Below, piece by piece: positions 19,694 to 21,976 of a stretch of 64,000 nt of DNA. The number at the start of each line of letters is the position of its first letter. Position 1 is the stretch's first letter. A program made the translations under genes and the position numbers. The notes below the pieces were generated by a model. That model saw only the letters and a program-made list of their open reading frames with translations. It ran no database searches and was not told the origin of the DNA. Source of the DNA: a virus (lineage: Duplodnaviria > Heunggongvirae > Uroviricota > Caudoviricetes); IMG/VR virus record IMGVR_UViG_3300012979_000001, positions 35,375 through 99,374 of that record. One strand, 5' to 3'.

Positions 19694-20248
19694 ATGAAAT
19701 TAGAAGATAAAACATTAAATAGAGATATTCATTTTTGTGAAGAAATTACAGAGGAATCAACAAAAGAATTGATTAAAAGTATAGTTGATGTTAATGCTTT
19801 TGATGACCAACAAGAAAAATTATTAGCAATTTATCAAAGAAATCCAATAAGACTATATATGACAACAGGTGGAGGAAGTGCATATCACACCATTGCATTA
19901 TTTGACCATATAAAAGCATCAAGAACACCTGTACATATTTATATTAGTGGATACTGTTGTAGTGGTGGTTTTTATATGCTTGGAGCAGCAGAAAAAGTAT
20001 TTGCTTATGAACATACAAGTTTAATGTATCATCAACTATCTAGTGAAATGTACTATTCTTATTTAGAAAAACAAAAACAAATTGTTAAAAACAGAGAAGA
20101 ATTACAAAAAATATTAGATGCATTAGTATTAGATAATACAAAAATTACTAAAGAGAAATTAAAAGAAATTAATGAAAAACAAGTTGATTGGTGGATGGAT
20201 GCTACTGAGGCTAAAAAACTAGGAGTAATTGACGAAATTATAAAATAA
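19694..20248 (+). CDS. ClpP-like (S14) serine peptidase family protein
   Basis: LYMTTGGGSAYHTIALFDHIK..IYISGYCCSGGFYML..MYHQLS aligns to ClpP IYINSPGG / GQAASMG / MIHQP blocks. Confidence 0.45.
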   Translation: MKLEDKTLNRDIHFCEEITEESTKELIKSIVDVNAFDDQQEKLLAIYQRNPIRLYMTTGGGSAYHTIALFDHIKASRTPVHIYISGYCCSGGFYMLGAAEKVFAYEHTSLMYHQLSSEMYYSYLEKQKQIVKNREELQKILDALVLDNTKITKEKLKEINEKQVDWWMDATEAKKLGVIDEIIK

Positions 20249-20260
20249 GGAGAGATACTT

Positions 20261-20593
20261 ATGGGGATAAAAGACAAGATAAAAGAAACAATAAAAATAA
20301 CTGGACAAAACATCAGTATTTTAAATGGAAAAGTTTTTGTTAATGGAGTAGAATATGTTCCAAAACAAAAAGGAGTTACAGAATTAGAATTTGAAGGAGA
20401 TGCTGGTAATCTTGATATAGATTGTAGCATATCAATAAAAGGAAATGTTATAGGCACAATAGATGCAGGAGGTTCTGTTAATATTGTTGGAAATGTAGAT
20501 GGAGATATTGATTCTGGAGGCTCTGTTAACATTTCTGGTAGTCATAAAGGAGATATAGATGCAGGAGGTTCTGTATCTATTATAGGGAGGTAA
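20261..20593 (+). CDS. bactofilin-like beta-helix repeat protein
   Basis: three 16-aa repeats G(N/S)xxG(T/D)ID(A/S)GGSV(N/S)I resembling bactofilin windings. Confidence 0.35.
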   Translation: MGIKDKIKETIKITGQNISILNGKVFVNGVEYVPKQKGVTELEFEGDAGNLDIDCSISIKGNVIGTIDAGGSVNIVGNVDGDIDSGGSVNISGSHKGDIDAGGSVSIIGR

Positions 20594-20596
20594 AAT

Positions 20597-21028
20597 ATGA
20601 AAACAATTAGATTAGGAGTGTTTGAAACAAATAGCAGTTCTACACATAGCTTTACATCTTGTCATACAGATTATAAAATTCAATCAAATATTGAACCAGA
20701 TTGGAGTGGAGAATTTGGTTGGCAATTTGAATTTTGGCATAGTCCAGAAGAAAAATTAGCATATATTTGTAGATGTTTAATGGGATATTGTGAAGATTCA
20801 CAAGAGAATGTTGACAAAGCCTTAAAACCATTGCAAGAAAGATTGGAAAATTTGGGTGTACATTTTGAAATTCCAACTATAGAAGAATTAGATGAATCTT
20901 ATGGATATGTAGACCATTCAGGAGATTACAGATATGATATAGAAGAAATTATTAAAACAGATGAAGGACTATTAAGCTTCTTGTTTAATAATAACAATGG
21001 AATTCAAGGTGGAAATGATAATTGTTAA
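20597..21028 (+). CDS. conserved phage protein with invariant N-terminal (R/K)LxVFETNSSSTHS, paralog of ORF 48197-48568
   Basis: MKTIRLGVFETNSSSTHS... versus MRVVRLNVFETNSSSTHS...; RBS GGGAGG. Confidence 0.5.
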   Translation: MKTIRLGVFETNSSSTHSFTSCHTDYKIQSNIEPDWSGEFGWQFEFWHSPEEKLAYICRCLMGYCEDSQENVDKALKPLQERLENLGVHFEIPTIEELDESYGYVDHSGDYRYDIEEIIKTDEGLLSFLFNNNNGIQGGNDNC

Positions 21029-21037
21029 GGAGATATT

Positions 21038-21976
21038 ATGAAGATAAATTTTAGATTAAAACGAAATTTACTTGGAGAATATGTTAATGGAAATTATAAA
21101 ATTTCTATATTTAGTGATGGAACAAGAGTAAAAGAAACTTTGGATAAAGATGCGGAACAATTTATTGCAGAATTTCCAGATAGTTGTGATATGAAAATAA
21201 CAAATCAATGTGATATGGGATGTAATATGTGTCACGAAAATTCTACTCCAGATGGAAAACACGCACAACAGTTATTAACACATCCAGTTATTGAAAATCT
21301 CCATCCTTATACAGAAGTTGCTATTGGAGGAGGAAATCCATTATCACACCCTCAACTAATTGAATTTCTTGAACTACTAAAAGAAAAAAAAGTAATTGCA
21401 AATATGACTGTAAACTATAAGCATTTTATGGACAGTTTAGATAAAATTAATTATCTATCAAGTATGAATTTAATTAAAGGAATAGGAATTAGTGCAAGTA
21501 AAATAGATGATAATTTAATTCATATTTTAGAGAATTATCCAAATGTAGTATTACACGTTATAAATGGACTAATTTCTCCCGAAGAATTTCAAAAATTATT
21601 CGACAGGAAAGTAAAAGTTCTAATATTGGGATATAAAGAATTTCGTAAGGGCAAAATTTTATATGAAAAGAATAAGGAAACTATTGACAGTAATAAAATG
21701 TGGATGTATAATAACATTACAGATTTTATCAAAAGATTTAAAGTTCTTAGTTTTGATGAGTTGGCATTAAAACAACTTGATGTAAAGCGTACAGTATCTC
21801 AAGAAATGTGGAACTTATACTATCAAGGCGGAGATGGACAATCAACAATGTTTGTTGATATGGTAGAAGAAAATTTCGCAAAAAGTTCGATATCAGATAA
21901 GCGATACAATCTGAATAACATAAAAAGTTTGGATGAGGCGCTTATTGTTATACAGAATGAGAAAGATGGCAAATAA
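21038..21976 (+). CDS. radical SAM enzyme
   Basis: CDMGCNMC (CX3CX2C) 4Fe-4S/SAM cluster motif; GGGNP glycine-rich SAM-binding stretch. Confidence 0.55.
   Translation: MKINFRLKRNLLGEYVNGNYKISIFSDGTRVKETLDKDAEQFIAEFPDSCDMKITNQCDMGCNMCHENSTPDGKHAQQLLTHPVIENLHPYTEVAIGGGNPLSHPQLIEFLELLKEKKVIANMTVNYKHFMDSLDKINYLSSMNLIKGIGISASKIDDNLIHILENYPNVVLHVINGLISPEEFQKLFDRKVKVLILGYKEFRKGKILYEKNKETIDSNKMWMYNNITDFIKRFKVLSFDELALKQLDVKRTVSQEMWNLYYQGGDGQSTMFVDMVEENFAKSSISDKRYNLNNIKSLDEALIVIQNEKDGK

Follow-up and report, generated by a model that had tools for sequence, protein, structure and literature searches.

A radical SAM enzyme and motif-bearing partner proteins form a conserved two-gene module in phages, with a possible role in protein modification

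Within a 64,000-nucleotide (nt) stretch of an uncultivated Caudoviricetes phage (IMG/VR record IMGVR_UViG_3300012979_000001, positions 35,375 to 99,374; the whole stretch is called the window below), four consecutive genes on the + strand encode a ClpP-like peptidase, a bactofilin-like repeat protein, a protein beginning with the motif FETNSSSTHS (FET protein) and a radical S-adenosylmethionine (radical SAM, rSAM) enzyme. The genes are separated by 12, 3 and 9 nt. An earlier description made from the letters alone (the sequence-only reading) had presented them as a tightly coupled cluster and assigned each to a family; both the coupling and all four family-level assignments (ClpP fold, bactofilin-like repeats, FETNSSSTHS protein and CX3CX2C radical SAM enzyme) were confirmed, the assignments by Pfam, motif and alignment. 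The grouping itself, however, did not survive comparison with other phages: the conserved unit is a strict two-gene module of rSAM and FET genes, in which the FET protein, previously treated as a bystander, is the universally linked partner of the enzyme. The host genome of the module is that of a phage of about 200 kb, with identical FET and bactofilin-like proteins both present on one contig of 197,699 bp. The window is AT-rich (GC content 0.22-0.35), and a megablast search of the 8-kb region around the cluster against 50,697 phage records returned no matches. Coordinates are collected in Table 1.

Synteny in related phages, which had been proposed as a check, showed that the rSAM and FET genes are conserved together and that the ClpP-like and bactofilin-like genes are not. 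Among IMG/VR loci seeded with the rSAM enzyme, at least one open reading frame (ORF) carrying the FET motif was present in 79 of 80, the exception being a 1.9-kb fragment; the median gap between the two genes was 24 nt, and 71 of the 79 pairs lay within 200 nt of each other. When FET proteins served as the seed, a member of the rSAM family was found within 10 kb at 75/80 viral loci and at 65/78 loci from genomes or metagenome-assembled genomes (MAGs). The loci were then dereplicated into 101 rSAM clusters below 80% identity, with neighbours counted within 5 kb on the same strand. FET genes (236 ORFs) occurred at every one of these 101 loci, and the next commonest neighbour family at nine. Each rSAM gene is accompanied by one to five FET genes. 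Because FET is universal at rSAM loci, and the other two genes of the cluster stand beside the pair only in the nearest relatives of the window, rSAM plus FET can be regarded as the unit that is conserved.

True homologs with the same adjacency are found in Microcystis phage Ma-LMM01, in Lak megaphages and in PHROG families 16999 and 28997. In Ma-LMM01, the rSAM homolog gp128 (35% identity) is accompanied by the FET protein gp130, and the pair lies near resolvase and primase genes. In the Lak megaphages (assigned to Prevotella), the rSAM homolog (43% identity) stands beside four to five tandem FET paralogs, in reversed gene order. These homologous pairs are annotated only as hypothetical or as "Fe-S oxidoreductase", and neither gp128 nor gp130 is named in the Ma-LMM01 transcriptome paper (PMC5780444). 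In several lineages, the module is placed in or beside replication and recombination genes: it precedes AAA_24 in locus L004, and AAA_24, DnaB, primase, RecJ and DNA polymerase III (Pol III) alpha genes lie near the module in L004, L006 and the window.

Such adjacency might reflect nothing more than common descent of a gene block, with no direct functional interaction between its two members. Many of the loci do come from related uncultivated phages and few metagenomes, and phage modules often keep their gene order. This explanation is nevertheless considered very improbable, since every other neighbour family is replaced from locus to locus (at most 9/101) but FET is retained throughout (101/101), and the pair persists even where its surroundings and order change (L004, Ma-LMM01 and Lak). 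In addition, the two genes are associated in cyanophage, in Bacteroidota megaphages and in Firmicutes-type phages, at rSAM identities as low as 35%.

No natural FET-rSAM fusion was found in 250 loci. A 461-aa uncultured-phage protein labelled "Radical_SAM domain" (BFVD A0A6J5LQS4) gave a weak Foldseek match to the FET model (E = 0.18, 111 columns); its length would be compatible with a FET-rSAM fusion. A few kilobases downstream of the rSAM/FET genes, locus L007 encodes a PARP/WGR-domain protein (11752-12450) and locus L010 a Macro-domain protein (12234-12719), which may point to an ADP-ribosylation theme or be a coincidence.

The sequence-only reading had called the N-terminus RLxVFETNSSSTHS invariant, and a second FET paralog in the window explains this. 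The N-terminus of the FET protein in the cluster, MKTIRLGVFETNSSSTHS, recurs 26 kb away in the product of ORF 48197-48568 as MRVVRLNVFETNSSSTHS, and both paralogs carry MxxxRLxVFETNSSSTHS, including a rare Leu at position -4. Across the family, the consensus M-[KR]-x-[IV]-R-x-x-[VT]-F-E-T-N-S-S-S-x-H starts at residue 1. Counted over 424 distinct FET proteins, R(-5) is found in all 424, F(-1) in 407, T(+1) in 415 and H(+7) in 421. The corresponding DNA occurs in 386 distinct versions; every Ser position draws on all six Ser codons, and R(-5) on all six Arg codons, so that conservation acts on the protein rather than on the DNA. An exhaustive profile search yielded 6,418 FET clusters (50% identity) at E <= 1e-3 and 2,609 at E <= 1e-10, and nearly all matches begin at residue 1. 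In 185,579 species genomes, the motif occurred about 150 times, mostly on phage-looking MAG contigs from bins of Clostridia, Bacilli, Bacteroidota, candidate phyla radiation bacteria and Methanobrevibacter. FET proteins match no family in Pfam, NCBIfam or PADLOC, no cluster member carries a name, and literature searches with motif strings and topic terms returned nothing relevant. A tblastn search of the FET protein against the 50,697 phage records (E <= 1e-3) also returned no match; the homolog gp130 of Ma-LMM01 is detectable by phmmer.

FET proteins are 50-320 aa long and share little beyond their beginning. When the motif was removed, BLAST left at least 29 unlinked clusters of protein bodies. 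Type A (213 members, PHROG 28997) includes the FET gene of the cluster and is marked by GW, K..Y and DH motifs, with GNDN at the C-terminus; type B (145 members, 95-130 aa) includes the distal paralog, and its 95-aa proteins are rich in acidic linker sequence. HHalign gave homology probabilities below 1% for types A, B and C without the motif, and full-length profiles aligned over only the first ~41 N-terminal columns (probability 99.5%). The types thus appear, at the level of profile comparison, to have in common a single N-terminal module of about 40 residues, with bodies that show no detectable homology. Outside the motif, further polar residues are invariant in type A (W42, K53, Y56, D106-H107 and N140-D141-N142). 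The structural model of type A is confident except for the invariant residues 1-12, the sole low-confidence part, and the N-terminal module is probably flexible; no solved or known enzyme fold was found for the model.

Paralogs encoded in the same genome also resemble one another within the motif. At its variable upstream positions, the sharing among them is 0.516, compared with 0.359 +/- 0.014 (reached in 0/2000 permutations), and for paralogs with unrelated bodies it is 0.511 vs 0.371. The downstream positions, which served as a control, barely differ (0.461 vs 0.425). The type-B gene of the window lies between an SSB-like gene (47052) and AAA_24 (48589). In L004, a FET-A/FET-B/rSAM trio is located one gene before AAA_24, upstream of the same AAA_24-DnaB-RecJ-Pol III series, and L006 is similar. 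As these loci keep the trio beside the AAA_24 series, the arrangement suggests that rSAM and FET-A moved to ~20 kb in the lineage of the window.

A short invariant N-terminus on diverse bodies, with several paralogs per genome, is also what a targeting or processing signal of the T4 internal-protein type would look like. The module would then be cut after its invariant Glu, which follows a hydrophobic strand, and FET proteins would be packaged or injected effectors whose link to the rSAM enzyme is indirect. Cleavage after Glu is known from the prohead proteases of T4 and phiKZ-type phages, and the protease responsible might be the ClpP-like enzyme, encoded two genes upstream of the rSAM/FET pair's FET gene in the window. 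This is judged quite improbable. The residues T-N-S-S-S-x-H past the putative cleavage site are as invariant as those before it, the motif is kept across cyanophage, Lak and Firmicutes-type phages with differing capsid machineries, and a ClpP-like gene is present at only a handful of loci. Moreover, the complete rSAM adjacency would be left unexplained, and the genes stand among replication rather than head genes. T4 capsid-targeting sequences are likewise short conserved N-terminal peptides on diverse paralogous phage proteins; FET proteins differ from them in that neither head genes nor a conserved protease are linked to them, in their conservation across unrelated phage groups and beyond the would-be cleavage site, and in their strict rSAM linkage, which has no counterpart in T4.

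The rSAM enzyme itself matches Pfam Radical_SAM at 35.8 bits (cutoff 29.5) and has a partial TIM-barrel fold as in solved members; its family comprises 3,911 database matches at E <= 1e-5. The cluster-binding cysteines C58, C62 and C65 are invariant in alignments of 17 and 39 sequences. These family alignments contain no other conserved cysteine, and the window protein has no cysteine after C65, so the enzyme lacks a SPASM or twitch cluster. Pfam detected no RRE/PqqD domain (RRE being the recognition element of ribosomally synthesised and post-translationally modified peptides, RiPPs). Before the core, a conserved N-terminal Y-x-N-G-N-Y...D-G-T element was modelled by AlphaFold 2 as a helix-free three-stranded sheet.

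Several standalone functions were considered for the enzyme. Every NCBIfam equivalog score, including those for the ribonucleotide reductase activase NrdG, PflA, QueE and viperin, fell far below its cutoff. The enzyme is thus not a ribonucleotide reductase activase, the outcome that the sequence-only reading had named as an example of a refutation, nor is it a QueE, a viperin or another known standalone enzyme. The best solved relative by sequence is QueE (E = 1.8e-4), with similarity confined to the cluster/SAM segment; there is also a weak match to the pVip hidden Markov model, and one homolog bears the database label "organic radical activating enzyme". In structural comparison, the highest scores were obtained for SkfB (16.9), SuiB (16.4), viperin (15.2), EpeE (14.5), BlsE (13.9), ChlB (13.6), anSME (13.3), MoaA (12.7), GDGT-MAS (12.6), CteB (12.4) and PqqE (12.3), followed at lower values by PFL-AE (9.5) and QueE (8.2). 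The model thus places the enzyme in the structural neighbourhood of the SPASM/twitch peptide maturases, but without their auxiliary-cluster domain, and the label "Fe-S oxidoreductase" holds at the level of fold only. The likeness to RiPP maturation loci noted in the sequence-only reading stands to this extent: with a structure nearest to RiPP and other peptide maturases, the logic of a maturase plus its substrate is reasonable. It does not extend to the four genes, which are not a conserved module.

In some phages, the rSAM gene carries intein-like insertions at catalytic motifs. In locus L096 (3650-5662), the insertion falls exactly at the third Cys of CX3CX2C (CDGGCAW[C...VHN]CYQGC), and in L200 (3629-5704) at the SAM-binding motif GGGNPL, with LAGLIDADG-like blocks. 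Intein-like insertions usually hit highly conserved, important genes, and their presence at these motifs suggests that the rSAM gene is important to the phage. In L093 (13612-15153) and L172 (12993-14528), the gene has a 216-aa in-frame HNH/AP2-like (homing-endonuclease-like) extension upstream.

The reading preferred here, with a probability of roughly 45%, is that the rSAM enzyme acts on several FET proteins and modifies their invariant N-terminal motif, the module serving as a combined recognition and modification tag. The functional unit would consist of one rSAM enzyme and one or more FET proteins, in the window those of the cluster and the distal paralog, with the N-terminal ~20-40 FET residues acting as the portable tag. 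The first strand (x-I-R-x-G-V-F) would dock on the enzyme, possibly on its conserved three-stranded N-terminal sheet, and a 5'-deoxyadenosyl radical would then modify a residue within the invariant E-T-N-S-S-S-x-H, giving perhaps a Ser-derived carbonyl or cofactor, an epimerised residue or a cross-link. In this way, one enzyme could mature several otherwise unrelated phage proteins, much as in leader-guided maturation transferred to proteins, for which anSME with its sulfatases and multi-precursor RiPP systems offer parallels. The proposal is based on the gene linkage, the pattern of one enzyme with many partners (the second FET gene being 26 kb away), the tag-like architecture, the constraint on amino acids, the within-genome sharing of the motif beyond chance and the flexible-arm-like character of residues 1-12. 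A more far-reaching version is still more tentative: a new rSAM-dependent protein modification system, widespread in large phages, in which R-x3-F-E-T-N-S-S-S-x-H marks unrelated proteins for one SPASM-less maturase that installs a new protein-derived cofactor or cross-link needed in replication or host takeover.

Several points weigh against modification of the tag. Unlike most peptide-modifying relatives, the enzyme lacks auxiliary-cluster cysteines, nor could an RRE/PqqD domain be detected in it, and the small-molecule enzymes viperin, BlsE and MoaA are interleaved among its top structural matches, alongside the weak pVip match. The invariant body residues of type A resemble an active or binding site, and the FET protein could itself be an enzyme. 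The low N-terminal confidence of the model (predicted local distance difference test, pLDDT) could be an artefact of a shallow alignment of 19 sequences, and the within-genome likeness of motifs could have arisen by gene conversion rather than by co-evolution with the enzyme. Mutual information between FET motif positions and rSAM columns showed no regional enrichment; this covariation is uninformative, being dominated by phylogeny. The sampled loci are biased towards few metagenomes, top-scoring matches and one broad phage group.

The main rival draws on part of the same evidence. FET proteins may be enzymes, adaptors or subunits that act together with the rSAM enzyme on a small molecule or nucleic acid, for example in nucleotide, DNA or tRNA modification during replication, with the conserved N-terminal module as a catalytic, ligand-binding or rSAM-docking element. 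The enzyme-like invariant polar residues outside the motif in type A would fit such a role, as would the siting of the module within or beside genes for replication and recombination in several lineages (L004, L006, the window and Ma-LMM01), viperin as the third-best structural match together with the pVip similarity, and the lack of a SPASM domain and RRE. On the other hand, unrelated bodies share only the N-terminal module, and the 95-aa type-B proteins with their acidic linkers are unlike enzymes; no third conserved gene, such as one for a nucleotide-handling enzyme, accompanies the pair; and the motif always lies at the extreme N-terminus of proteins whose model has no known enzyme fold. 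This co-enzyme role is regarded as somewhat unlikely.

Modification of FET proteins by the enzyme would be classed as a variation on the theme of a radical SAM maturase plus its cognate protein. In comparison with the RiPP maturases SkfB, SuiB, EpeE/YydG, CteB, ChlB and PqqE, the enzyme of the window has neither a SPASM/twitch cluster nor a detectable RRE/PqqD. RiPP precursors are short peptides, whereas FET partners are proteins of 50-320 aa, the modelled type A having a confident predicted fold. The FET genes next to the enzyme do encode a conserved N-terminus with a variable remainder, but the core of a RiPP is hypervariable, whereas the invariant part of FET includes the presumed modification site. 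Neither a transporter nor a dedicated leader peptidase is conserved beside rSAM/FET in the 101 dereplicated loci. Other systems for comparison include anSME/AtsB, which act on Ser/Cys-type sulfatases, and multi-precursor RiPP systems of the NHLP/Nif11 type. The glycyl-radical activases (PFL-AE, NrdG) and QueE (COG0602) are likewise small rSAM enzymes with a single cluster; they occur in phages, and some act on a protein substrate.

If tag modification were to hold, the module would represent a large and entirely unstudied enzyme-substrate system (at least 3,911 rSAM homologs and the 6,418 FET clusters), ranging over cyanobacterial phages, Lak megaphages and contigs from bins of gut Firmicutes, candidate phyla radiation bacteria and methanogens. 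New radical SAM post-translational chemistry would follow, together with a portable N-terminal maturation tag on folded proteins, intermediate between RiPP leader logic and cofactor maturases of the anSME type. Even if FET proteins proved to be co-enzymes, a widely conserved, strict two-gene module without annotation would merit characterisation.

The two remaining genes of the cluster are lineage-specific neighbours. The ClpP-like protein matches Pfam CLP_protease (E = 2.3e-20; 73.7 bits, cutoff 20.2), and alignment with solved ClpP structures puts its Ser, His and Asp at the positions of the catalytic triad; the product is a standalone ClpP-fold serine peptidase with this triad intact. A canonical ATP-dependent ClpP was rejected, with TIGR00493 at 42.5 against a cutoff of 308.6 and other ClpP models likewise far below theirs, and no Clp ATPase partner was identified among the window ORFs scanned, a scan that was not exhaustive. 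A phage prohead (head maturation) protease was also rejected (NF045542, 54 vs 120); no virion gene is present among the annotated genes of the window. The PHROG label "head maturation protease" is accordingly valid only at fold level, and together with the oxidoreductase label of the rSAM enzyme it offers a lesson for annotation. The bactofilin-like protein contains three 16-aa repeats, IKGNVIGTIDAGGSVN, IVGNVDGDIDSGGSVN and ISGSHKGDIDAGGSVS, with no tandem repeat detected at the DNA level. It scores 27.1 bits against Pfam Bactofilin, just below the cutoff of 27.9, and matches phrog_3163 at 8e-12; PF04519 (PF04519.20) is precomputed on an identical database protein and on most of 60 homolog clusters, so that membership of this family is likely at the level of the domain.

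The distribution of these two genes bears on what the sequence-only reading had offered as interpretations: a four-gene RiPP-like cassette in which the rSAM enzyme modifies the repeat protein and the ClpP-like enzyme removes a leader, or else a cytoskeletal or structural module. The tight coupling, the probable single transcription unit, the same gene order in the nearest relatives (L007/8 and L012) and the closeness of the rSAM fold to RiPP maturases would agree with such a cassette. However, the two genes are missing from ~97-99% of rSAM/FET loci. They stand beside the pair only in the nearest relatives L007/L008 and L012/L092, and among 158 FET-seeded loci ClpP-like matches were found in five and bactofilin-like matches in two. 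Even within this lineage the arrangement is not fixed, as an extra 184-aa ORF (L007, 5078-5632) separates the ClpP-like and bactofilin-like genes. Homologs of both occur in other phages with no rSAM gene nearby. Those in Brevibacillus phage Sundance and in Tsamsa-like Bacillus phages (Tsamsavirus) are surrounded by ligase and ATPase genes, the ClpP-like homologs of the latter phages not by head genes; for the bactofilin-like protein, such a homolog is also present in Sinorhizobium phage Phosso.

With the bactofilin-like gene confined, like the ClpP-like one, to the closest relatives, the repeat protein is very unlikely to be a substrate of the rSAM enzyme. It is an ordinary PF04519-domain protein that was not assigned to a virion component, and a cytoskeletal or structural module finds no support beyond the bactofilin domain in a window lacking virion genes. 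Both four-gene interpretations are consequently held to be extremely improbable and are largely refuted by synteny, and the ClpP-like and bactofilin-like genes are best described as probably co-transcribed neighbours specific to this lineage of ~200-kb phages, outside the rSAM/FET module.

As for transcription, the absence of a promoter or terminator boundary between the four genes, also claimed from the sequence alone, was largely borne out. No terminator-like site lies within the cluster; the rSAM coding sequence does, however, contain a 12/12 match to the sigma-70 consensus (TTGACA-17-TATAAT), ~260 nt short of the stop codon. Such matches are near background in this AT-rich window (40 found vs 32 expected). 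The hairpin that follows the rSAM gene has a folding energy of -15.6 kcal/mol (z = -5.17), and 0/200 shuffled sequences fold as well. Together with the flanking promoter-like sites, it is compatible with a single transcription unit, to which the ORF upstream of the ClpP-like gene may also belong. That ORF has no Pfam, PHROG or PADLOC match, and a 141-aa ORF occupies the equivalent position in L007.

Table 1. Positions of the module, its neighbours and other features in the window
Feature	Coordinates	Strand	Remarks
Divergent transcription or possible origin region	~4422-5043		
PAPS-reductase-like protein	16201-16923		phrog_424, E = 3e-36; upstream of cluster
Promoter-like site, TTGACA-17-TACAAT with TG	19132..19160	+	Consensus match only; upstream of ORF 19233-19637; possible unit start
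Hypothetical ORF, 134 aa	19233..19637	+	Possible first gene of same transcription unit; outside conserved module
ClpP-like peptidase	19670 (GTG) or 19694 (ATG) to 20248	+	Lineage-specific neighbour
Bactofilin-like protein, 110 aa	20261..20593	+	Lineage-specific neighbour
FET protein, type A, 143 aa	20597..21028	+	Core partner of rSAM
Invariant N-terminal module, MKTIRLGVFETNSSSTHS	20597..20650	+	Proposed recognition/modification site
rSAM enzyme, 312 aa	21038..21976	+	phrog_16999 "Fe-S oxidoreductase" family
Codons of C58-x3-C62-x2-C65 cluster-binding motif	21209..21232	+	Invariant in alignments
Sigma-70 consensus match	21684-21712		Within rSAM gene
Hairpin and T-run	21959..22002	+	Overlaps rSAM stop codon; probable intrinsic terminator, unit end
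Promoter-like site	22024..22052		Consensus match; downstream of rSAM hairpin
Transposase-like protein	25038-25820		phrog_10081, E = 1e-79; downstream of cluster
tRNA array	27596-37668		20 genes
Kinase-metallophosphatase-RNA ligase fusion, 753 aa	41066-43327		phrog_8238, E = 2e-207
UvrD-like helicase, two overlapping ORFs	44035-45144 / 45122-45796		
FET protein, type B, second paralog, 123 aa	48197..48568	+	Replication module
Pol III alpha-type DNA polymerase, two overlapping ORFs	55754-57796 / 57744-59153		

Across the window, all annotatable genes belong to DNA/RNA metabolism or replication, including DNA ligase, a metallophosphoesterase, a PAPS (3'-phosphoadenosine-5'-phosphosulfate)-reductase-like protein, the tRNA array, a ParB-like protein, a kinase/phosphatase/RNA-ligase fusion, the split UvrD-like helicase, an SSB-like protein, AAA_24, DnaB, primase, RecJ, the split Pol III alpha and a RecD-like helicase. 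The tRNA genes cover 16 amino-acid specificities in a GC-richer segment (0.32-0.35) with small ORFs interspersed. Just downstream, the fusion protein combines a kinase (AAA_33), a metallophosphatase and a T4-type RNA ligase and resembles an RNA (tRNA) repair enzyme; its best isolate matches are SPbeta-like Bacillus phages (40% identity). The overlapping ORF pairs of the helicase and of the polymerase could each represent a split gene, a programmed frameshift or a sequencing error. Near the start of the window (1-5043), genes lie on the - strand to ~4.4 kb and on the + strand beyond, and the sign of the GC skew flips at ~4 kb, marking a region of divergent transcription or possibly an origin.

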